Assembly: GCA_022572885.1 (NCBI GenBank)
Contig: JACZVC010000001.1
Coordinates: 74,638 to 138,637, forward strand
Source: Pseudomonadota bacterium
GTDB lineage: Bacteria > Pseudomonadota > Gammaproteobacteria > Steroidobacterales > MnTg04
Reading direction: 5' to 3'
Length of the DNA: 64,000 nt
Shown: piece by piece, positions 1 to 41,357 of the stretch
Layout of the letters: each line of letters opens with the position of its first letter
Position numbering within the stretch: the stretch's first letter is position 1
Made by a program: the position numbers and the translations under genes
Notes under the pieces: model-generated
What the model was told of the DNA's origin: nothing
What the model saw: only the letters and a program-made list of their open reading frames with translations
Database searches by the model: none

Positions 1-1264
1 AGAGCGCGCACACCGAGCGTACCAGCGGAAGGTCGACGCCTACGAGGTAGAGTTTACCGAGAACCTCGACTATAGCCTTCCACTCGCCGAATTCCGGCAG
101 ACCTGCGTCGCACCCATGTTTCAGATGTTCGGCGTTACAGGGGGAGCGCTCGGGGCCGGCTTACTCGCAATGGCGTCGGTCCATCGTGTGGTCGGCAAGA
201 AGTCAGCCGAGGTGAACGCTCTCGCCAAGAAGCTCCAGCTCGGCTTCACGGGCAACGTCGTCGTCGAGATGGGGATCGCGATGTTTCGTCTGGCCAAGCT
301 GTTGGAGCCATCCGACTTCGAGGACCTGGCCCGGTTGGCCGAACGTGTCGAGAATCGCCAGATGTCCGCGCAGTTCTTGAGCGCGTGGGACGCTTTCCTG
401 TCGACGTACGGCTGGCGCGGTCCTCTGGAGATGGACCAGGCGAGCCCGCGCTATGCAGACGACCCCGGTCTCGCACTGAGGCAGATGTCCTTCATGACCG
501 TCGACGACGAGGGCTTTGATCCGGAAGCCGCGCACCAACGCCACGTAGCCGAGCGACGACAAGCCTACCAAGAGTTGATGAGCCGGTTGAGCTGGCTGCG
601 GCGGGTATTATTGCGCCGGGTCCACCTTCTCATTGAATTGTTCGCCGGACACCGCGACACGCCCAAACACCAAATAGTCTTGTTCAACTACGCCCTGCGC
701 AAGCGCGCCCTGATCGAGGGCAAACGCCTGGTCCGAGAGGGGCGTCTCGATGCAGCCGAGGACGTCTTCGATCTGACGGTCCGCGACCTCGAATCGGCCA
801 ACTTGGATCCTTCGCTGGACCTGCGAAAGGTCCGTGAGGAGCGGACGCGTTTCCTCAAGATACTCGAAGCCCAGGTGACGGAGTTCCCTCAAGTGATCGA
901 CTCGCGAGGCCGGATCCTTCGGCCCGCTCCGCGCGAGGAGAAGCCCGGCGAGCTGAGCGGGATGGGTGTGTCGCCCGGTGTGGTGACGGGTCCGGTCAAG
1001 ATGCTCCGCGACCCCTACGAGAAGCCCATCAACAAGGGGGACGTATTGGTCGCGTACACGACGGATCCGGGCTGGACGCCGCTGTTCGTGAACGCCGCCG
1101 CGGTCGTGCTCGAGGTCGGCGGGATTCTGCAGCACGGTGCGGTGATCGCGCGCGAGTACGGAAAGCCGTGCGTTGTGGGCATCGACCGGGTGATGACGAA
1201 GCTCTACGACGGCCAGAGGGTCGAAGTCGATGGGACGGCGGGAGTGATCCGTTTTCTGTCGTAA
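1..1264 (+). CDS. PEP-utilising-enzyme family protein, rifampin-phosphotransferase (Rph)-like; 3' portion only (5' end left of window)
   Basis: The reading frame of track ORF 116..1264 stays open back to nt 2, so the gene is cut by the window edge. The C-terminus (GDVLVAYTTDPGWTPLFVNAAAVVLEVGGILQHGAVIAREYGKPCVVGI) is the swivelling phospho-histidine PEP-utilising mobile domain. It sits at the extreme C-terminus as in Rph/PpsA-like enzymes. Confidence 0.75.
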   Translation, partial: ERAHRAYQRKVDAYEVEFTENLDYSLPLAEFRQTCVAPMFQMFGVTGGALGAGLLAMASVHRVVGKKSAEVNALAKKLQLGFTGNVVVEMGIAMFRLAKLLEPSDFEDLARLAERVENRQMSAQFLSAWDAFLSTYGWRGPLEMDQASPRYADDPGLALRQMSFMTVDDEGFDPEAAHQRHVAERRQAYQELMSRLSWLRRVLLRRVHLLIELFAGHRDTPKHQIVLFNYALRKRALIEGKRLVREGRLDAAEDVFDLTVRDLESANLDPSLDLRKVREERTRFLKILEAQVTEFPQVIDSRGRILRPAPREEKPGELSGMGVSPGVVTGPVKMLRDPYEKPINKGDVLVAYTTDPGWTPLFVNAAAVVLEVGGILQHGAVIAREYGKPCVVGIDRVMTKLYDGQRVEVDGTAGVIRFLS

Positions 1265-1280
1265 CCAGGGAGGAATCGTG

Positions 1281-1400
1281 ATGAGCATTGAGGTAGAGCT
1301 TATCTCAGTATGTGAAGGTAAAGTGGTAGGGCATCTCGGAATTCTCTTAAATCATAATCCCAGGCGTAAGCATGTAGGTAGTTTTGAATCCGCAACATAA
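1281..1400 (+). CDS. hypothetical 39-aa peptide (MSIEVELISVCEGKVVGHLGILLNHNPRRKHVGSFESAT)
   Basis: ATG 1281 is preceded by a strong RBS, agggagg (1267-1273). The stop TAA lies inside the left core of attC 1395-1452. It is too short for the ORF track and no family was recognised. Confidence 0.2.
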   Translation: MSIEVELISVCEGKVVGHLGILLNHNPRRKHVGSFESAT

Positions 1401-1452
1401 CAATGGCATCCAGCCGACCGCCTACGGCGGCGGCTGATGCCAAGCGTTAGGC
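1395..1452 (+). repeat. integron attC recombination site (58 bp)
   Basis: ACATAAC (1395-1401, 6/7 to RYYYAAC) ... GTTAGGC (1446-1452, fits GTTRRRY). The arms tggcatcCagccgAccgcc and ggcggcggctgatgcca pair perfectly except for two unpaired bases on one arm, as expected for attC extrahelical bases. Confidence 0.7.
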
Positions 1453-1485
1453 TGCGGATTAACCAGGCACTTGGAGGGACCGCCA

Positions 1486-1932
1486 ATGCGCTGGAAAAAA
1501 TGGCTGCGGATCTTTGCCGGTGGGGCGGCGTGGGCTGCCGCTTACAACTCCGTCTGGGGTATCGCCTGGTTCGTGTTTATGCGTCGGGAGTGGCTGGAGG
1601 CGACGGTCGCAAGCGGCCGCCCCATGCCTTGGACTCCCGACTTCTTGGTCGTGTGGTTGCCACTGACTCTACTCTTTGGCGCGGCGATTACGGCCTACAT
1701 GACGAGCGGGTCTCGCCAGGCTGCGGCGCTGAGAGCTACTCTTGCTGCAACCCTCGTTCTTTGGGTCCCAGGGACGGTCGGAATGGCTGTGTGGGCCTGG
1801 CAGGAGGCCCTTTCACCGCGCGTCATTGCGATAGACTCGGCTGTGAACCTCTTCGCCGTGGTGGTAGCGTCACTGGTCCTAGGATTGGGCTTGGGTGTCC
1901 GTCAGCTTCGCTCGGCGTCTCCTGTCGGGTAG
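1486..1932 (+). CDS. hypothetical integral membrane protein (cassette-encoded)
   Basis: Track ORF 1471..1932 starts at TTG; ATG 1486 lies 6 nt after the ggaggga RBS. There are four hydrophobic helices, e.g. AAWAAAYNSVWGIAWFVF, FLVVWLPLTLLFGAAITAYM, LAATLVLWVPGTVGMAVWAW and LFAVVVASLVLGLGLGV. No family was recognised. Confidence 0.6.
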   Translation: MRWKKWLRIFAGGAAWAAAYNSVWGIAWFVFMRREWLEATVASGRPMPWTPDFLVVWLPLTLLFGAAITAYMTSGSRQAAALRATLAATLVLWVPGTVGMAVWAWQEALSPRVIAIDSAVNLFAVVVASLVLGLGLGVRQLRSASPVG

Positions 1933-1979
1933 CGCTTGTGGTTTGTCAGCGGGCGGGTGCGGCGGCAGAATTCCAATTC

Positions 1980-1986
1980 GTTAGGC
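1980..1986 (+). repeat. attC right-hand core GTTAGGC only (left arm not recognisable)
   Basis: GTTAGGC fits GTTRRRY. The 12-mer cgttaggctgcg (1979-1990) is identical to the junction of attC 1395-1452 (1445-1456). I could not find a convincing RYYYAAC core or palindromic arms upstream. Confidence 0.3.
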
Positions 1987-2000
1987 TGCGAACCGATCTC

Positions 2001-2294
2001 ATGAATGAATCGACAAATATTCAGGTCTCCGGACTAAGTGACCGCCTGACCGATCGCGAAATTGAGGCAATGGTTGGGTCGGTAGTAAATGTCCCGATTG
2101 GCGGAACGATTCCTCCAGAAGGCCTATCTTGGTACGAGTTGTTCCGCTTTGCGCGCGTTATCGCCGTTTCACCGAAAAGCCGCCGCAAATCTCTACGTTG
2201 TCCAATCTGCGAAGAAAGCCGCCCGCGATATAGTCTCGAAGTCCAATGGGAAGCTGGCTACAAGTCCAAATTCGGAAATTTATTGTGTGAATGA
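2001..2294 (+). CDS. hypothetical protein, 97 aa (cassette-encoded)
   Basis: This is an internal ATG of the 1437..2294 track ORF, 15 nt after the putative cassette junction at 1980-1986. Its translation is MNESTNIQVSGLSDRLTDREIEAMVG...CPICEESRPRYSLEVQWEAGYKSKFGNLLCE. The overlapping alternative ORF 2089..2361 (90 aa, other frame) cannot be excluded. Confidence 0.3.
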   Translation: MNESTNIQVSGLSDRLTDREIEAMVGSVVNVPIGGTIPPEGLSWYELFRFARVIAVSPKSRRKSLRCPICEESRPRYSLEVQWEAGYKSKFGNLLCE

Positions 2295-2411
2295 TGCATT
2301 GATGGACTTGTGGTTTCGGGTGGAGAGGATATCCTGTTTGGAGATTCAGATTGGGAGCTAAAGTTTATTCACATTTCGACGACATATGACATTAGGAAAT
2401 GAGCAAATGCA

Positions 2412-2510
2412 GCCTAACAAGCCACTGCAGCAGTCACTTGACCCTGCCGCGCCCTTTGCTGCCGCAAAGCCCACGTCAGCCTCAAGCGCTGCTGAGTTCT
2501 ATCGTTAGGT
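2412..2510 (+). repeat. integron attC recombination site (99 bp)
   Basis: GCCTAAC (2412-2418, perfect RYYYAAC) ... GTTAGGT (2504-2510, GTTRRRY). The arms are imperfectly complementary: ctgcagcagtcacttgacc versus the reverse complement ctcagcagcgcttgaggc. Confidence 0.7.
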
Positions 2511-2552
2511 TTATCAGAAAAATATCATTTAAATTGATGATTGGCGGGGATT

Positions 2553-2984
2553 ATGGATAGGCAATTACTTTCTAAGCTAGAAGGAACGAAATGGACAGGA
2601 AGAGGCGAGCTTTGGCTCGACCCTGAAGGAAATAAAGCTGATTCTTATGACTGTCAATTGCAAGTTAAGAGTGGTGCTATAAACTACACTTGGATTCACG
2701 AAGGCGAAACAAAAAAAGGTAATTTTACTATTAACGAAAGCGGTGGAAGTTGGGTTGATAGTTGGCATCAACCAGAGGCTGTTAAATGTACAGACGTTTC
2801 TGGTGCATGGGGGCTCTTCACTTTTAAACATACTTATGAAGTACCTTCAAGCCCAAGTTGGGGTTGGCAGAGTAAACTAACTGAGCGGCCAGACGGTTCT
2901 CTAATTCTTCAAATGACAAATATTGCACCTTGGGGAGAAGAAGGTAGAGCTGTTCGGATGATATTCACTAAAGAGAAAACATAG
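2553..2984 (+). CDS. hypothetical protein, 143 aa, DUF1579-like (tentative)
   Basis: Track ORF 2541..2984 starts at TTG and the first ATG is at 2553. The cassette is AT-rich (20 G/C in the 60 nt 2521-2580). The sequence is W/G-rich and looks beta-rich (WTGRGELWLDPEG...SWVDSWHQPE...SWGWQSKLTERPDGSLILQM). The family assignment is from memory only. Confidence 0.6.
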   Translation: MDRQLLSKLEGTKWTGRGELWLDPEGNKADSYDCQLQVKSGAINYTWIHEGETKKGNFTINESGGSWVDSWHQPEAVKCTDVSGAWGLFTFKHTYEVPSSPSWGWQSKLTERPDGSLILQMTNIAPWGEEGRAVRMIFTKEKT

Positions 2985-3021
2985 AACTTTTACTGTTTAC
3001 AATAGATGAATTCAAAAAAAA

Positions 3022-3118
3022 GCCTAACAAATAGCTCCAGCGGACAAATTAAAGCGTCACTTTTTTTGCATGCGCAAAAACGTGCCACTTTAAATTGCCG
3101 CTGAGCATGGCGTTAAAT
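3022..3118 (+). repeat. integron attC recombination site (97 bp)
   Basis: GCCTAAC (3022-3028) ... GTTAAAT (3112-3118). The left arm gctccagcggacaaattaaagcgtcac matches the reverse complement of the right arm, gctcagcggcaatttaaagtggcac. The central loop is tttttttgcatgcgcaaaaac. Confidence 0.75.
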
Positions 3119-3190
3119 GCCTTAGACACTGTGTGCCATTTTCAGGGGTTCACCCCTTGACCATAATATCAATAGTGATACTATTCGTGG

Positions 3191-3442
3191 GTGGCTTCTA
3201 CCGACGACATCCTGAAGCGAATGAGGCGAAATCCAAAGGGCGTAAGCTTCAAAGACCTTAGCAAGATTTGCGATCAGTACTTCGGGGAGCCCAGGCAGTC
3301 GGGAACCAGCCATCGGGTCTATAAGACACCGTGGCAGGGAAACCCACGGGTAAATATTCAAAGCGCAAAGGGTAAGGCCAAACCATACCAGGTGCGCCAA
3401 GTACTACAGGCAATTCAACGCCTGGAGGAAGAAAATGGCTAA
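3191..3442 (+). CDS. hicA: type II toxin HicA family
   Basis: 83 aa with a GTG start. TSHRVYKTPWQGNPRVNIQSAKGKAKPYQVRQVLQAI resembles the HicA (G)SH...KaKpYQVrQv signature. It overlaps the downstream antitoxin gene by 8 nt. Confidence 0.7.
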   Translation: MASTDDILKRMRRNPKGVSFKDLSKICDQYFGEPRQSGTSHRVYKTPWQGNPRVNIQSAKGKAKPYQVRQVLQAIQRLEEENG

Positions 3443-3761
3443 AGATATTGATCGTTACACGTATAGAGTTACCTGGTCGGAGGAAGATCAGGAGCACGTT
3501 GGGTTATGCGCTGAATTTCCAAGTTTAAGTTGGCTCGAAAAGCATCCGGAAAAAGCTTTGGCAGGTATTCGCAAGCTTGTGAAATCGTGCATCAAAGACA
3601 TGGCTGTAAACAAGGAAGTAGTGCCGGAGGCAATATCCGCCAGGAGTTTCAGTGGTAAGTTCATGGTTCGCGTACCACCGCAGACTCATCGAATGCTGGC
3701 AATTCAAGCAGCGGAGTCGGGGGTGAGTTTGAATCGTCTTGTGGCGAGCAAACTAACGTAG
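3435..3761 (+). CDS. hicB: type II antitoxin HicB family (C-terminal ribbon-helix-helix)
   Basis: 108 aa. The N-terminal HicB fold region is YTYRVTWSEEDQEHVGLCAEFPSLSWLE. The C-terminal FSGKFMVRVPPQTHRMLAIQAAESGVSLNRLVASKL is typical of HicB-like antitoxins. Confidence 0.8.
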   Translation: MAKDIDRYTYRVTWSEEDQEHVGLCAEFPSLSWLEKHPEKALAGIRKLVKSCIKDMAVNKEVVPEAISARSFSGKFMVRVPPQTHRMLAIQAAESGVSLNRLVASKLT

Positions 3762-3768
3762 CTATGGC

Positions 3769-3844
3769 ACGTAACCAGCGCATGCAGTTCGCGCCTGCGG
3801 CGCCGGACCGGCCTGCGGCCGGCCACTGATGCAGGTCGTTAAGT
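3769..3844 (+). repeat. integron attC recombination site (76 bp)
   Basis: ACGTAAC (3769-3775, 6/7) ... GTTAAGT (3838-3844, GTTRRRY). The arms are cagcgcatgcagt and the reverse complement gacctgcatcagt, with one extra base. The centre is GC-rich and palindromic (gcctgcggcgccgg/ccggcctgcggccggc). Confidence 0.6.
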
Positions 3845-3849
3845 GCACT

Positions 3850-4449
3850 ATGGGTTATCGATTAATCGTTTTGCTTGCTCTTACTATCGGTACTTGTGTC
3901 ACGACCGCAGAGAAGACCACGCCAAACTACAACTGGACCGATAGTCCAGATTACTCAGGGCTGAGGCAGCAAATCGGATGGGATGGCAACTACTACTCTC
4001 TTTGTGAGAGAAGCCGGCCGATGCAGTCAATGGTTGAGGCAATGAATAATGGACAATGGGAGGCGGCTGCCAACCAAGGACTCAATTGGCTGGATCGCTG
4101 TCCGGTCGACATTCGAGCCCACCACTACACCGGGATTGCGTTGACCAAACTCGGTCGTGAGCAGGAAGGCCAGGACCACTTTCGCTGGGCAGAAGGCCTC
4201 ATGGATTCGATTGTCGCCTCCGGCGATGGCAAGACGCCCGAAACAGCTTACGTAACAATTTCAGTTGCCGAGGAATATGACGCATTGTATTTTTTTGGTT
4301 TGGAACGAAAATCCCAGGCACTTGTTTCCGGCCCAATAATGTGTGATTTGATCACAGCGTTAAACGATAAGGGCGAGGAAGTATCGATTTATTTTAATCC
4401 CGCAGCTCATTTTGCGAGGTTAGCCAAAATGCTGAAAACGCTGGATTAG
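3850..4449 (+). CDS. secreted hypothetical protein, 199 aa, DUF4919-like (tentative)
   Basis: The track ORF starts at 3829, inside the attC. ATG 3850 gives the signal peptide MGYRLIVLLALTIGTCVTTAEK. The motif DSIVASGDGKTPETAYVTISVAEEYDALYFFGLE recalls DUF4919, from memory only. Confidence 0.6.
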   Translation: MGYRLIVLLALTIGTCVTTAEKTTPNYNWTDSPDYSGLRQQIGWDGNYYSLCERSRPMQSMVEAMNNGQWEAAANQGLNWLDRCPVDIRAHHYTGIALTKLGREQEGQDHFRWAEGLMDSIVASGDGKTPETAYVTISVAEEYDALYFFGLERKSQALVSGPIMCDLITALNDKGEEVSIYFNPAAHFARLAKMLKTLD

Positions 4450-4493
4450 CGATGTGCGAGCGAGAAAGCGCACTTAACCGGCAGTGGGCTAAA

Positions 4494-4550
4494 CGTTGGA
4501 TGCTTTCGTTAACATTTTGCCGATTTTTGCCATTGACTGAGCATCCAACG
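4494..4550 (+). repeat. hairpin / possible degenerate attC
   Basis: A perfect 10-bp inverted repeat, cgttggatgc (4494-4503) / gcatccaacg (4541-4550), is separated by 37 nt and preceded by GCTAAAC (4488-4494, 6/7 RYYYAAC). No good GTTRRRY core follows, so the call is uncertain. Confidence 0.3.
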
Positions 4551-4795
4551 CAGGCGTAGAGTTTCCCTGTGGCAAAGAGTCAGGCAGATATCGAATCCCA
4601 AGCGCGACGCCGCCGATAAAAGAAAGAGTACGGCTATTTCGGCGCCTCATTGTGACGCTTGAAAGACAAAATGACGGAGATGTCGAACAACAGTGGCTTG
4701 ATGAGGCCGAGAGACGCCTGGCAGCATACCGCAGCGGTCAGACAACCGCTCATTCGGGTGAAGAGATTTCTGAAGCAATTCTGAACCGGGGCTGA
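4541..4795 (+). pseudogene. putative addiction-module antitoxin (TIGR02574-like) lacking a usable start codon
   Basis: Manual translation of the open frame gives ...PPIKERVRLFRRLIVTLERQNDGDVEQQWLDEAERRLAAYRSGQTTAHSGEEISEAILNRG*. The D(V/I)E..W..EaeRR..e.r.G motif is typical of this antitoxin family. The frame opens after a TGA at 4538-4540. The only ATG/GTG/TTG in it is GTG 4652, which would remove the N-terminal half. Confidence 0.4.
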
Positions 4796-4797
4796 CG

Positions 4798-4905
4798 CCG
4801 AGATACCGCCTGCTTTCCGAGGCAAAAGCAGAGCAGGGAGACTTGGAGAAGAACCTGGAAGACTCTGGAATCACGAAAGAACAGGCGGAAACTGACGAAA
4901 ATTAG
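4798..4905 (+). pseudogene. possible truncated ParE/RelE-like toxin remnant
   Basis: It lies directly after the antitoxin-like frame. Its translation is PRYRLLSEAKAEQGDLEKNLEDSGITKEQAETDEN*. Only the first ~20 aa resemble the ParE N-terminus (yrl.ls..A..DL). It has no start codon and stops after 35 codons. Confidence 0.2.
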
Positions 4906-4952
4906 ACCCTATTGATTGCCAAACAAACTGTTGCAATCAACTACAGTTATAA
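4903..4952 (+). repeat. short attC-like hairpin
   Basis: The arms tattgattgc (4910-4919) and gcaatcaaCta (4933-4943) pair with one bulged base. The flanks are TTAGACC and GTTATAA (5/7 complementary; GTTATAA is a poor fit to GTTRRRY). It sits between the decayed TA cassette and the dioxygenase cassette. Confidence 0.25.
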
Positions 4953-5002
4953 TAAGAGAATCGATTTGCTTTAGCTGTTATGCAAAGACAATGGAGTCCA
5001 AA

Positions 5003-5644
5003 ATGAACAGGCGAAAATTTCTAAGGCACGGGGTAATCGGCGGAGCGGCAAGTCTGTTTGCAAGTTCTGCTTATGCGAGATATTTGCCAACCTTAGACCC
5101 CACTCCATCAGAAGGCGAAGGGCCTTTCTATCCCGTTTTAGCGCAGAAAGACAAGGACTTTGATCTAACACGGGTAGAGGGCAAACAGGGAGTGGCTAAG
5201 GGAAAGACCATCATCATCCAGGGGCAAGTTCTGGATACGGATGGCAACCCAGTTGAGGATGTCACGGTTGACTTGTGGCAAGCGAATGCAGCTGGAAGAT
5301 ATAGGCATCCGCATGATTCGAGCGAAGCTCCATTGGACCCTAACTTTCAAGGCTGGGCTATCGTGCCAAGTGGAAAAGAAGGAAAGTTTCGTTTCAAAAC
5401 TGTCAGCCCTGGCGCTTATCCGGCATCTGATAATTGGACAAGGCCTCCACATATACATTTCAAGGTCAGCAAGAGAGGATTTATTGAACTCACTACACAA
5501 ATGTATTTCCCGGGACATCAACTTAACGATTCAGATCTTTTGTTAAAACGAAAGAGCAATGAAGAAAGAAAACTGATGATTGCTTCAAGAATAGAAGAAC
5601 GACCAGGCGTTTATGCTTACACAATCGTTTTGCAAAAGGCATGA
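5003..5644 (+). CDS. intradiol ring-cleavage dioxygenase (protocatechuate 3,4-dioxygenase beta-subunit-like) with Tat signal
   Basis: The track ORF 4916..5644 is over-extended. ATG 5003 follows a ggag RBS and gives MNRRKFLRHGVIGGAASLFASSAYA, a twin-arginine signal. The motifs EGPFYP, DLWQANAAGRYRHPHD and RPPHIHFKV are hallmarks of the intradiol dioxygenase C-terminal domain. Confidence 0.75.
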   Translation: MNRRKFLRHGVIGGAASLFASSAYARYLPTLDPTPSEGEGPFYPVLAQKDKDFDLTRVEGKQGVAKGKTIIIQGQVLDTDGNPVEDVTVDLWQANAAGRYRHPHDSSEAPLDPNFQGWAIVPSGKEGKFRFKTVSPGAYPASDNWTRPPHIHFKVSKRGFIELTTQMYFPGHQLNDSDLLLKRKSNEERKLMIASRIEERPGVYAYTIVLQKA

Positions 5645-5687
5645 CTACCAACAGCACCGGAGGCTAAATGCGTCGGTGAATCGAGGC

Positions 5688-5694
5688 GTTAGGT
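5688..5694 (+). repeat. attC-like right core GTTAGGT (arms weak)
   Basis: GTTAGGT fits GTTRRRY and lies 44 nt after the dioxygenase stop. A possible left core ACCAAC (5649-5654) and a caccg/cggtg pairing exist, but the spacing is non-canonical. Confidence 0.3.
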
Positions 5695-5974
5695 ATTTTA
5701 CTTTGAGTTTCCCGGAGGAGAATCTATGCTGCCAATCGAACCTGGGAAAGAACTGAAGCGCCTGGCAAAAAAAACAGATATTGGCAGGAGCCGGAAAATC
5801 GATTCCCGCTAATACTTGGTCGTGTATCGACGATAAGCGACCCCGACCGGCAGGAACCATCGCCGGTCATTCAAAAAACGATCGCACGTATACTCGCGCA
5901 ATTCACGCCAGGCTAGCGCCAGTTGGACAGTAAATAAGCCTGTACGAAGCCGCTGCCCGCCAAGCGCCAGCCTC

Positions 5975-7675
5975 TCAATAACCTGCTGCGTGCCCGTCCT
6001 TTCTGGATTCGGACGCACCGATATAAGTGCCGTTTTCCTCATCGCGGCGGATCGCCTGGTAGCCGCCAAATTTGCCGGCCGACAGGCTCACAGTGTGACC
6101 TCTTTGGGTCAGTTCCATAATGACCTGATCGTCAATTCCGGATTCCAGAAAAAGCACGCCGCCATCGCGCATTTGCCCACCGGTCGGCTGGCTGCTGCTT
6201 TCGTGGCGCAGGCGTGGCGCGTCGCCCGCCTCCTGCAGGTTCATGCCGAAATCGATCAGGTTGACCAGGATCTGCACATGCGCCTGTGGCTGCATCGGCC
6301 CACCCATAATGCCAAAACTCAGCCAGGGCTTGCCGTCTTTGGTAACGAATGCCGGGATGATGGTATGGAAAGGGCGTTTGCCCGGCTCGAAGCTGTTGGC
6401 ATGGCCCTCTTCGAGGCTGAACAACTCACCGCGGTCCTGCAAGTTGAAGCCGAGGCCGGGCGGCACCATGCCCGAACCCATGCCGCGATAATTGCTCTGG
6501 ATCAGCGAGACCATGTTGCCGTATTTATCGGCCGTCGCAAGGTAAATGGTATCGCCGTTTTCCAGCTTCGGATCTCCCGGCGGAAATACCATCGCTGCTT
6601 TGTCCATGTTCAAAAGTTTTCGCCGCCGGTCTGCGTATTCCTTCGAAATCAATTCCTTGACCGGCACATCGGCGAAATCGGGATCGGCATAGAACTTCGC
6701 CCGATCCTCGAAAGCCAGTTTCTTTGCTTCGGTCAGCACGTGCAGGTAATCAGCGCTGCCAAAACCCATTGATCGAAGATCGTAGGCTTCGAGAATGTTC
6801 AGCATCTGCAGGGCCGCGATACCCTGTCCATTCGGCGGCAGCTCCCAGACATCGTAACCGCGATAACTCGTCGAGACCGGCTCAACCCATTCGGAATGGT
6901 GACTGAGCAGATCCTCGTAGCTGAGGAAGCCGCCGTTGGCCTGCACGTGGTTGGCGATGACATGCGCCATCTCACCCTTGTAGAACACATCACGCCCGCC
7001 CTCGGCGATTTTTTCCAGGGTATTTGCCAGTCGCGGGTTCTTGAAAATCTCGCCCTTGGCGGGCGCCCGGCCATTGGGCAAATAGGTCTCACGGAACGCA
7101 GGGTAATCGCCGAGTATGGTCTCGTATTTTTTCCACAGCCAGGCGATGGATTCGCTGACCGGGAAGCCATCGCGGGCGTAATCGATCGCGGGTTCGAGTA
7201 TTTCTTTCATCGGCAGCGAGCCAAAGCGCTGATGCATCTCGAACCAGCCATCGACCGTGCCCGGCACGCTGACCGGCAGTGCCCCACGCCGTGGGATCGA
7301 CTCGTAGCCGTTGTCGATGAACCATTCCCGGGTGAGGGAGCGCGGCGAGCGCCCGCTGGCATTCAGGCCATACAGTTTCTTCGTTTTGGCGTCCCAGATT
7401 ATCGCGAACAAATCGCCGCCGATGCCGTTACCGGTCGGCTCCATCAGGCCGAGTGCGGCGTTTGCCGCGATGGCTGCGTCGATCGCGTTGCCACCGGTCT
7501 TGAGAATATCGATCGCTATCTGGGTCGCCAGCGGCTGGCTGGTCGCCGCCATGCCATGAGTTGCAATGACTTCGGAGCGGCCGGCAAAGCTGTTGCCTGA
7601 TTCTCGGTCGTATCCATATGCCATCGGGGTCACCATAAACAACATCAGTCCACTCAAAATCCACTGGCTTCGCAT
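5975..7675 (-). CDS. ggt: gamma-glutamyltranspeptidase
   Basis: 566 aa with a signal peptide (MRSQWILSGLMLFMVTPMAYG). It carries GGT family motifs ATSQPLATQIAIDILKTGGNAIDAAIAA, EPTGNGIGGDLFA and the autoprocessing-Thr region GDTIYLATADKYGNMVSLIQSNY. Confidence 0.9.
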   Translation of the reverse strand: MRSQWILSGLMLFMVTPMAYGYDRESGNSFAGRSEVIATHGMAATSQPLATQIAIDILKTGGNAIDAAIAANAALGLMEPTGNGIGGDLFAIIWDAKTKKLYGLNASGRSPRSLTREWFIDNGYESIPRRGALPVSVPGTVDGWFEMHQRFGSLPMKEILEPAIDYARDGFPVSESIAWLWKKYETILGDYPAFRETYLPNGRAPAKGEIFKNPRLANTLEKIAEGGRDVFYKGEMAHVIANHVQANGGFLSYEDLLSHHSEWVEPVSTSYRGYDVWELPPNGQGIAALQMLNILEAYDLRSMGFGSADYLHVLTEAKKLAFEDRAKFYADPDFADVPVKELISKEYADRRRKLLNMDKAAMVFPPGDPKLENGDTIYLATADKYGNMVSLIQSNYRGMGSGMVPPGLGFNLQDRGELFSLEEGHANSFEPGKRPFHTIIPAFVTKDGKPWLSFGIMGGPMQPQAHVQILVNLIDFGMNLQEAGDAPRLRHESSSQPTGGQMRDGGVLFLESGIDDQVIMELTQRGHTVSLSAGKFGGYQAIRRDEENGTYIGASESRKDGHAAGY

Positions 7676-39584: not shown

Positions 39585-39660
39585 TGGCAGGCCAGGAGGG
39601 AATCGAACCCCCAACCTGCGGTTTTGGAGACCGCCGCTCTGCCAATTGAGCTACTGGCCT
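39585..39660 (-). tRNA. tRNA-Trp (anticodon CCA)
   Basis: The reverse complement is AGGCCAGTAGCTCAATTGGCAGAGCGGCGGTCTCCAAAACCGCAGGTTGGGGGTTCGATTCCCTCCTGGCCTGCCA. The acceptor stem is aggccag/ctggcct and the anticodon loop is CTCCAAA. It is in the canonical position upstream of secE. Confidence 0.9.
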
Positions 39661-41019: not shown

Positions 41020-41094
<75 letters not shown>

Positions 41095-41121
41095 CATGTT
41101 CATTTCCAGCTTGTTGCCTGA

Positions 41122-41195
41122 TGGAGCGGGTGATGGGAATCGAACCCACATCATCAGCTTGGAAGGCTGAGGTTCTACCTTTGAACTACACCCGC
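41122..41195 (-). tRNA. tRNA-Gly (anticodon TCC)
   Basis: The reverse complement is GCGGGTGTAGTTCAAAGGTAGAACCTCAGCCTTCCAAGCTGATGATGTGGGTTCGATTCCCATCACCCGCTCCA. The anticodon stem-loop is tcagc-CTTCCAA-gctga. Confidence 0.9.
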
Positions 41196-41272
41196 CGCGA
41201 AAACCACCACCTTCACCGACAACATTCAGACAAATAAATCTTTGTTTTTAAAAGATTTTTTGTTTCATGCGT

Positions 41273-41357
41273 TGGTGGAGGGGGTAGGATTCGAACCTAC
41301 GAAGGCATAGCCAGCAGATTTACAGTCTGCCCCCGTTGACCGCTTGGGTACCCCTCC
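41273..41357 (-). tRNA. tRNA-Tyr (anticodon GTA), long variable arm
   Basis: The reverse complement is GGAGGGGTACCCAAGCGGTCAACGGGGGCAGACTGTAAATCTGCTGGCTATGCCTTCGTAGGTTCGAATCCTACCCCTCCACCA. The anticodon stem-loop is gcaga-CTGTAAA-tctgc. Confidence 0.9.

Follow-up and report, generated by a model that had tools for sequence, protein, structure and literature searches.

Does the array of gene cassettes at the left end of this stretch belong to a complete integron with an integrase of its own, or is it a cluster of attC sites lacking an integrase (CALIN)? The question arises from a window of 64,000 nt (positions 74,638 to 138,637 of contig JACZVC010000001.1, assembly GCA_022572885.1) from the genome of an uncultured gammaproteobacterium of marine or sediment type. 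The first 5694 nt of the window carry four hairpin-forming sites that resemble integron attC, and the sequence then continues into ggt, pepQ and the ribosomal superoperon. A preliminary description, made from the sequence alone, predicted that the integrase gene (intI) and the insertion site attI lie to the left of nt 1, and named a CALIN as the alternative. Both features were identified there, and we assign a probability of about 0.93 to the reading in which a complete chromosomal integron has its distal half at window 1-5694. Coordinates beyond the window are based on ENA contig ERZ27267519 k141_1638385 (78.9 kb; locus L001), which was connected with the window by exact-protein look-up (window nt N corresponds to L001 N+8515).

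About 6 kb to the left of window nt 1, and divergent from the cassettes, L001 encodes a 327-aa tyrosine recombinase on the minus strand (L001 1492-2475; window -7023 to -6040). This protein passes the NCBIfam model TIGR02249 ("integron integrase") with 377.8 bits against a cutoff of 265, covering profile positions 3-313 of 315; the XerC and XerD models give about 110 bits, far from their cutoffs of about 330. With the equivalog NF011946, a second NCBIfam model of integron integrases, 276 bits were obtained and the cutoff of 435 was not reached. Residues 19-325 of 327 align with VchIntIA (PDB 2A3V, E 1.7e-76) with few gaps across the segment specific to integron integrases, yet the two proteins are clearly diverged. 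The gene is intact over its full length and the motifs of the catalytic region are conserved. The exact protein is already present in GenBank (MCH9025546.1, "MAG: integron integrase [Proteobacteria bacterium]"; MAG, metagenome-assembled genome). Its nearest relatives are 87-88% identical and come from MAGs of uncultured Gammaproteobacteria, followed at 65% by a protein from a Woeseiaceae MAG.

Integron cassettes are excised by recombination between two attC sites and are inserted at attI. IntI binds the folded bottom strand of attC, which presents an R box, an unpaired spacer, an L box and extrahelical bases, and strand exchange takes place between G and TT of the GTTRRRY core (written here as G/TT). 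To the right of intI, the intI-attI region of L001 aligns with those of two MAGs whose IntI are 88% and 87% identical (L002 and L003) up to ...AGAATTAACTG/TTA (...AACTG/TTA), after which the three loci split into three different sequences. This three-way divergence fixes the predicted attI crossover, G/TT, at L001 2822 (window -5693). The first cassettes accordingly differ among the three loci, and in each of them osmC adjoins intI, so that osmC, intI and attI form a conserved unit in these relatives.

The element spans about 12.7 kb, with intI at one end and, at window 5694, the last attC relic at the other. It comprises about ten cassette units after attI, all transcribed away from intI, nine of which are bounded by intact attC. 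The nine strong attC are localised on the plus strand between L001 3417 and 12359. Five cassettes lie between intI and the window, each ending in a strong attC, and they encode a HicA/HicB pair, a beta-lactamase-fold protein, a DUF4386 protein, a 155-aa protein of unknown function and a DUF1697 protein. Cassette 6 carries a gene similar to rifampin phosphotransferase (Rph), the 3' end of which forms window 1-1264, and it ends in the attC at window 1395-1452. The largest gap between sites is about 2.9 kb, well below the 4 kb that the clustering rule of Cury et al (2016; PMC4889954) allows between an attC and intI or the next attC on the same strand. The same study defines a complete integron as intI with at least one attC, and on its definitions the element is a complete integron and not a CALIN, a cluster of two or more attC with no integron integrase among them.

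The CALIN reading holds that the cassettes would move only with an IntI supplied from elsewhere. It draws on the lack of an integrase inside the 64-kb window, and it is from within the window alone, with its four attC, that the locus looks like such a cluster. It also draws on a related locus, L166, in which osmC is joined directly to the unit that ends our array, with no intI between them. An integrase of TIGR02249 grade on the same contig, separated from nt 1 by 6 kb with attC gaps of at most about 2.9 kb, excludes this alternative, and a chimeric contig that brought intI and the array together is contradicted by six independent assemblies. We consider a CALIN extremely improbable.

The attC sites themselves were evaluated with two covariance models, neither of which was trained on sites of the window. 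The first, R2, was built from the five attC upstream of the window only, and its search of the window was run with filters off; the second, R3, was built from 115 attC of other genomes. Both recovered four sites on the plus strand, at 1395-1452, 2412-2510, 3022-3118 and 3769-3844, which are exactly the ends given in the preliminary description. R2 scored them at 34.0-44.0 bits (E 3e-9 to 1e-6) and R3 at 35.6-56.3 bits (E 4e-12 to 9e-7). The next-best R2 match in the window, 5639-5694, reached 14.5 bits (E 0.17), with noise below it, and R3 gave no other match below E 0.5. R3 also recovered all five upstream sites, on a sister assembly. As a control, R2 gave no match at E <= 0.1 in 80 loci with ggt homologues (0.93 Mb). 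In 40 loci with IntI homologues R2 identified 123 sites, every one of which, outside L001, lies upstream of intI on the opposite strand. A first model of 58 positions (R1) had missed the two long sites, probably through its maximum hit length, and R2 took its place; the alignments behind the models used trimmed or N-padded sites, as full-length MAFFT alignment misaligned the 3' arms. An enlarged locus scan contained a single attC match downstream of intI on the same strand (L080 12639-12749, in a Saccharibacteria MAG, 31.9 bits), an arrangement that corresponds to an inverted platform.

The bottom strands of all four window sites fold as long imperfect hairpins, for which z denotes stability relative to shuffled sequences. 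The 58-nt site at 1395-1452 has R'' ACATAAC and R' GTTAGGC and the most stable fold (z -6.7), with scores of 45.7, 41.6 and 55.3 bits for R1, R2 and R3, respectively. The 99-nt site at 2412-2510 (R'' GCCTAAC, R' GTTAGGT; z -4.6) scores 44.0 bits with R2 and 56.3 with R3, and the 97-nt site at 3022-3118 (R'' GCCTAAC, R' GTTAAAT; z -4.8) scores 34.0 and 51.2 bits. The fourth site, 76 nt at 3769-3844 (R'' ACGTAAC, R' GTTAAGT; z -1.7), scores 40.6 and 35.6 bits and is the last intact attC of the array. The main stem of the 1395-1452 bottom strand is broken only by two single-base bulges on the 3' arm, a T and, five pairs on, a G, which are the two unpaired bases that had been seen in the hairpin beforehand. 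When the bottom strands were folded, R and L boxes and extrahelical bases were found in all nine strong sites, with a common geometry of a 7-nt R box, a spacer of about 5 nt, 3 bp, an extra base, 6 bp, a further extra base and a variable terminal stem. Two window sites have an R'' that does not follow the strict consensus (ACATAAC and ACGTAAC), and different bases are bulged from site to site (G/T, C/A, C/T).

The same hairpins could be read as REP-like (repetitive extragenic palindromic) or terminator palindromes whose RYYYAAC and GTTRRRY ends are coincidental. The strict pattern RYYYAAC-N-GTTRRRY does occur by chance in the window: it finds two of the four sites and also 3413, 34706, 38644 and 62751, and the end pattern alone is neither sensitive nor specific for attC. 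In addition, the site at 3769-3844 folds only marginally better than its shuffles. The chance matches, however, fold poorly and receive no model score, whereas the four sites are co-oriented and share the geometry of R and L boxes and bulges. A model from other genomes recognises them with E values down to 4e-12, the 0.93-Mb control is free of matches, and homology with other genomes breaks exactly at GTT cores. The probability that remains for coincidental palindromes is negligible.

The nine attC range from 58 to 99 nt, with a mean pairwise identity of 0.59, against 0.84 in the array of L009, a relative with 63% IntI identity; the heterogeneity of length and sequence remarked on in the preliminary description thus extends over the whole array. 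The jumps in base composition that it reported are likewise borne out. Along the array, unit G+C content (GC) is 0.63, 0.63, 0.50, 0.40, 0.51, 0.49, 0.55 and 0.45, compared with 0.57-0.60 in the host, and nt 2521-2580 contain 20 G+C. The attC at 3769-3844 is 95% identical to one of the upstream sites (U4, L001 6316-6391), although the respective cassettes are unrelated. A third attC of this family, at L169 1021-1098 in another metagenome, is 88% identical to 3769-3844 and 89% to U4; it sits after an alpha/beta-hydrolase gene and before Cdd1 and a dioxygenase.

Traces of cassette movement were identified in comparisons with other loci. In L162, from another assembly, 613 nt match window 2503-3115 at 97.7% identity, and the match starts and stops at the GTT of consecutive attC; this copy of cassette 2505-3112 has a different attC upstream and unrelated DNA downstream. 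The array as a whole was assembled in six samples with 98.7-99.97% identity. The most divergent of the six, L176 (1.3%), lacks seven cassettes (8.1 kb) in comparison with the full array. Its junction reads ...CTTATCTAAACG/TTAAATGCCTTAG, which is attC U1 joined at G/TT to the start of the HicAB cassette. Over L176 1-66, the 3' part of U1 passes at ...CTAAACG/TTAAATGCC... into the HicAB cassette of window 3113, with L001 3512 joined to window 3111, and R' of the attC at 3022-3118 is the crossover point. L174, a contig assembled from another sample, starts at this point too (CGTTAAATGCC). As far as its sequence goes, the L176 junction is the exact product that attC x attC excision of the seven cassettes would be expected to leave. 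The two parental attC share only 65% identity, which makes homologous recombination improbable as the origin of this junction. An intact IntI with canonical attC and attI would carry out cassette excision and insertion at G/TT, and we infer that the integrase is still active. The array also displays three stages of cassette life: cassettes that recur in unrelated arrays, a variant with seven cassettes excised, and fixed distal cassettes with eroding attC.

These observations also bear on the alternative that the locus is a fossil integron, in which IntI is inactive and a vertically inherited array decays from its distal end. Gene order is identical in five of the six samples; decay has affected two or three attC at the distal end, and of one internal attC only a lone core is left. 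One toxin-antitoxin (TA) cassette is pseudogenised, the Rph-like gene is interrupted in one sample, and inspection and a consensus scan of the intI-attI region revealed no cassette promoter (Pc). All of this would fit a fossil. On the other hand, an inactive integrase sits poorly with an intI that is intact over its full length with conserved motifs, with first cassettes that differ among relatives with 87-88% IntI identity, and with a strain variant, 1.3% diverged, whose deletion junction falls exactly at the G/TT of two such dissimilar attC. We regard a fossil integron as unlikely.

Several points weigh against a complete and active integron at this locus. The activity of IntI is itself our inference. 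The evidence of L176 comes from one 5.4-kb contig with about 2.9x coverage that starts inside an attC, and an assembly artefact is possible. No Pc was identified, and the sole sigma-70-like site of the intI-attI region (L001 2859-2887) precedes hicA within the first cassette. The same array supplied seed sites for the attC models, though not the window's own. In the ggt-proximal DNA of the closest relatives no model-grade attC was identified, and an array on the ggt side is undemonstrated there. Finally, L166 2970-4348 contains osmC, 48 nt and then the dioxygenase unit that ends our array, with no intI, attI or other cassette between them; the dioxygenase is 91% identical and the osmC region 82% identical at the nucleotide level. 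Most simply, the lineage of L166 would have lost the platform together with the proximal array, but the dioxygenase unit could instead predate the integron at the osmC locus. This second possibility fits less well, given the attC of the unit and its occurrence in four different genomic contexts. The same inspection and consensus scan that did not find Pc found no LexA box in the intI-attI region either.

The chromosomal setting speaks to a further alternative, a mobile integron of class 1-5 carried beside ggt on a transposon or plasmid. The array is short, its attC are heterogeneous in length and sequence like those of mobile integrons, and two cassettes resemble resistance genes (beta-lactamase fold and Rph-like). 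However, no transposase, Tn402-type or plasmid genes were found in the 20 kb around the array in L001, and the flanks are core chromosomal genes, osmC on one side and ggt, pepQ and the ribosomal superoperon on the other. The element occupies the same osmC-side position in the relatives with 87-88% IntI identity, where the osmC-intI-attI junction is conserved. The score of its integrase with NF011946 also remains below the cutoff, and the closest IntI all belong to environmental gammaproteobacterial MAGs. A mobile integron is thus very improbable. As a detail of the platform, osmC (L001 1013-1486) extends 15 codons beyond the stop of its L002 and L003 counterparts (which end in ...ASFG) and ends 6 nt from the intI stop.

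On the distal side, conserved chromosome begins at window 5963 (the break in blastn alignments), 12 nt past the stop of ggt. The latter, encoding gamma-glutamyltransferase (5975-7675, minus strand; Pfam G_glu_transpept), is the first conserved gene on this side and belongs to the flank outside the integron. Between array and chromosome lies a junction region (5695-5962; GC 0.52), in which 5821-5866 are common with ggt-proximal DNA of L082 and L083. These two closest relatives are 94% identical at the nucleotide level over ggt-pepQ and have different DNA beyond 5963. Candidate attC picked by eye beside ggt in L082, L083 and L153 were rejected, as they have no model score and no fold. The locus is variable among close relatives, as a comparison proposed in the preliminary description was meant to establish. 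That description also named outcomes incompatible with an integron, namely no match to an attC model, no IntI upstream and an invariant locus, and none of these was observed.

Measured against the integrons surveyed by Cury et al (2016; PMC4889954), in which Gammaproteobacteria are the clade richest in integrons, the element has the same divergently oriented IntI, attI with a GTT crossover, co-oriented cassettes mostly of one gene and R''/R' attC hairpins. Nothing categorical sets it apart; one cassette of 2.9 kb is unusually long and the distal attC are decayed. Like the sedentary Vibrio superintegron type, it is chromosomal, lacks transposition genes, has a conserved platform position and carries TA cassettes (two HicAB pairs and one relic) among mostly unknown cargo. 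Unlike that type, it has nine intact attC instead of tens to hundreds, and heterogeneous sites instead of near-uniform repeats. Its fixed position together with mobile-like attC fits the view of a continuum between sedentary and mobile integrons (Cury et al, 2016; PMC4889954). The element is a regular integron, a clean and instructive example without surprise, and it adds a well-resolved small chromosomal integron that combines a fixed position with heterogeneous attC of the mobile-integron kind. A real integron was found from sequence alone and the position of its integrase was rightly predicted, so the result mainly validates the scan.

The weaker candidate sites of the preliminary description fared unevenly. 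One of them belongs to a former attC at 5639-5694 and another, 4494-4550, lies inside an attC relic, whereas 1980 is a lone core and 4903-4952 is not an attC. Its rule of one open reading frame (ORF) or TA pair per interval holds only if weak sites are counted; otherwise, 1453-2411 holds two ORFs and the region after 3844 contains two genes and a TA relic. At 1980-1986 a GTTAGGC core on the plus strand has no partner arm, no hairpin (z +1.2) and no model match, and GC drops from 0.63 to 0.50 across it. This core is probably the last trace of an attC that once separated two cassettes, and loss of that attC would have fused the two into unit 1447-2504.

The distal 1.85 kb of the array (3845-5694) is read as fused, decaying cassettes. 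The first unit encodes a DUF4919 protein (3850-4449, plus strand; Pfam E 9e-15), 199 aa from the first ATG and 142 aa as called in the assemblies. A homologue with 70% identity in L177 forms a one-gene cassette between two strong attC, and window 4440-4490 aligns with the R''/L'' half of the attC of that cassette. The decayed attC of the DUF4919 cassette was accordingly localised to 4471-4564 on the plus strand, where the R''/L'' half is alignable (ACTTAAC at 4472-4478) and the 3' half is unrecognisable; neither R2 nor R3 matches this region and its fold is not attC-like. Inside the decayed site, a perfect 11-bp inverted repeat (4494-4504 and 4540-4550; AC-GTTGGATGCT ... AGCATCCAAC-GC) has its arms 35 AT-rich nt apart. 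This repeat was found nowhere else in the window, and its order, GTT...AAC, is wrong for attC; an attC relic is present at 4471-4564, but the repeat is not the site.

The second distal unit is a TA-cassette relic (4613-4795, plus strand), in which a complete Unstab_antitox domain (PF09720) is followed by a short ORF tail without family match. Read from upstream, the domain covers profile positions 3-54 of 54 with 48.5 bits; from the GTG at 4652, only positions 18-54 are covered. The translated frames contain no ATG, GTG or TTG start upstream of the domain, which is why the unit is regarded as a relic. A ParE-like toxin stub at 4798-4905 was considered and rejected, as it has no family match and its 3' half belongs to a leader common with L166.

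That leader (4841-5002, plus strand) precedes the third distal unit and holds a hairpin at 4914-4942; L166 3447-4297 and window 4841-5691 are 86% identical (blastn). The candidate attC at 4903-4952 is this hairpin within the L166-conserved leader. A short ORF tail at 4841-4905, ending in ...DLEKNLEDSGITKEQAETDEN and a stop, is conserved at the peptide level with L166 3447-3511 (...HLKKNQEDSGVLKAEADPDNN and a stop), and the upstream halves of the two ORFs differ. This tail may encode a small leader peptide for the dioxygenase unit.

The gene of the third unit encodes a 213-aa protein similar to intradiol dioxygenases (5003-5644, plus strand; Pfam Dioxygenase_C, E 1e-33). It matches structures of protocatechuate 3,4-dioxygenase beta chains (E 2e-29), has more than 7,900 homologues and, as read from the sequence, carries a twin-arginine motif (RRKFLRHG) at the N-terminus. 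The gene overlaps the decayed terminal attC, 56 nt at 5639-5694 on the plus strand, with R'' GCATGAC (AAC changed to GAC) and R' GTTAGGT (16.3, 14.5 and 8.9 bits with R1, R2 and R3). Homologues of this site score 22.9 bits in L166 (E 9e-4) and 29.3 bits in L167/L168 (E 2e-5), where the preceding dioxygenase genes are 91% and 84% identical, respectively. Homology with L166 and L167 stops at window 5691, inside the GTT core. We conclude that 5639-5694 is a decayed but genuine former attC, the last of the array. That the dioxygenase gene is a normal part of the chromosome beyond the array, as L166 might suggest, was rejected as the main reading, since a model-grade attC follows it in L167/L168 and in three contexts the GTT core marks the end of homology. 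The three units after 3844, namely the DUF4919 gene, the antitoxin relic and the secreted dioxygenase-like protein, would be former cassettes, which decay of their attC may have fixed at the far end of the array beside ggt.

The cassettes of the window carry mostly uncharacterised genes, as the preliminary description had stated; their products are a 148-aa membrane protein, a 97-aa CPIC protein, the DUF1579-like protein, HicAB, the DUF4919 protein and the dioxygenase-like protein. All genes of the array in the window are on the plus strand. The double unit 1447-2504 begins with the 148-aa predicted membrane protein of unknown function (1486-1932; GC 0.63), of which an exact copy is present in public assemblies and which shows only a weak match to DUF1761 (E 0.028). 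The second ORF of this unit (2001-2294) encodes 97 aa, contains the motif CPIC, is of unknown function and matches no Pfam or PADLOC family. The only gene of cassette 2505-3112 encodes a 143-aa DUF1579/lipocalin-like protein (2553-2984) with 366 homologues of 57-97% identity in several phyla.

Cassette 3113-3838 is a putative TA cassette. It encodes an 83-aa HicA-like putative toxin (3191-3442; HicA_toxin E 0.095, below threshold), whose gene overlaps hicB by 8 nt, and a HicB antitoxin of 108 aa (3435-3761; Pfam HicB, E 7e-13). A pair homologous to 3191-3761 in L031 shows 65% and 72% identity. In the array's first cassette HicA is recognised clearly (E 6e-10) and is accompanied by HicB; the two HicAB cassettes are not close paralogues, and comparison at the DNA level was uninformative. 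The two pairs may act as addiction modules that stabilise the array. PADLOC identified no known defence family among ten cassette proteins. ORFs 2001-2294, 2553-2984 and 3191-3442 are uncalled by the gene finder of the public assemblies, and AT-rich cassette genes are missed by routine annotation. The same gene finder calls a 39-aa ORF (1281-1400) that follows the Rph-like gene and overlaps R'' of the attC of that cassette; this ORF has no Pfam family and is doubtful as a gene.

The remaining cassette, number 6 (L001 7039-9961, 2.9 kb), lies between attC U5 (L001 6961-7044) and 1395-1452 and contains the Rph-like gene as its single large ORF. The whole gene, which resembles those of Rph and phosphoenolpyruvate (PEP) synthase, spans L001 7134-9779 and encodes 881 aa with PPDK_N, Rph_4th and PEP-utilizers domains; window 1-1264 (plus strand) contains its 3' part with the Pfam PEP-utilizers domain. 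Among solved structures, the best matches are 5FBS and 5HV1 (E 1e-83), which we take to be those of the Listeria rifampin phosphotransferase, deposited as "phosphoenolpyruvate synthase". The protein misses all NCBIfam equivalog cutoffs for Rph and PEP synthase, both of those for Rph by a wide margin. In a sister assembly (L172) a substitution splits the gene into 421 and 490 aa. The largest known cassette in the survey of Cury et al (2016; PMC4889954) is about 2 kb. A 419-aa serine hydrolase of the beta-lactamase fold (PF00144; L001 3557-4816, window -4958 to -3699) is the product of the array's second cassette; it resembles class C beta-lactamases and AmpH only weakly (E 1e-14 to 1e-20), with scores far short of the cutoffs.

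Taken together, these two genes could suggest an active environmental integron that carries a relative of Rph as an exceptionally long single-gene cassette alongside a beta-lactamase-fold cassette, with the Rph-like protein inactivating an antibiotic; we hold this to be quite unlikely. If the protein did phosphorylate rifamycins or another antibiotic, rph-type genes would already be packaged as integron cassettes and could pass into clinical integrons. For a functional screen, the Rph-like cassette, the beta-lactamase-fold cassette and those of unknown function would be sensible choices, though nothing out of the ordinary.

A search of the window with Rfam, which includes no attC model, returned nothing in the array region and only four tRNAs elsewhere. 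These are tRNA-Trp (39585-39660) and a tRNA-Thr/Gly/Tyr cluster (41020-41357), all on the minus strand, an ordinary arrangement beside the ribosomal/tuf region.

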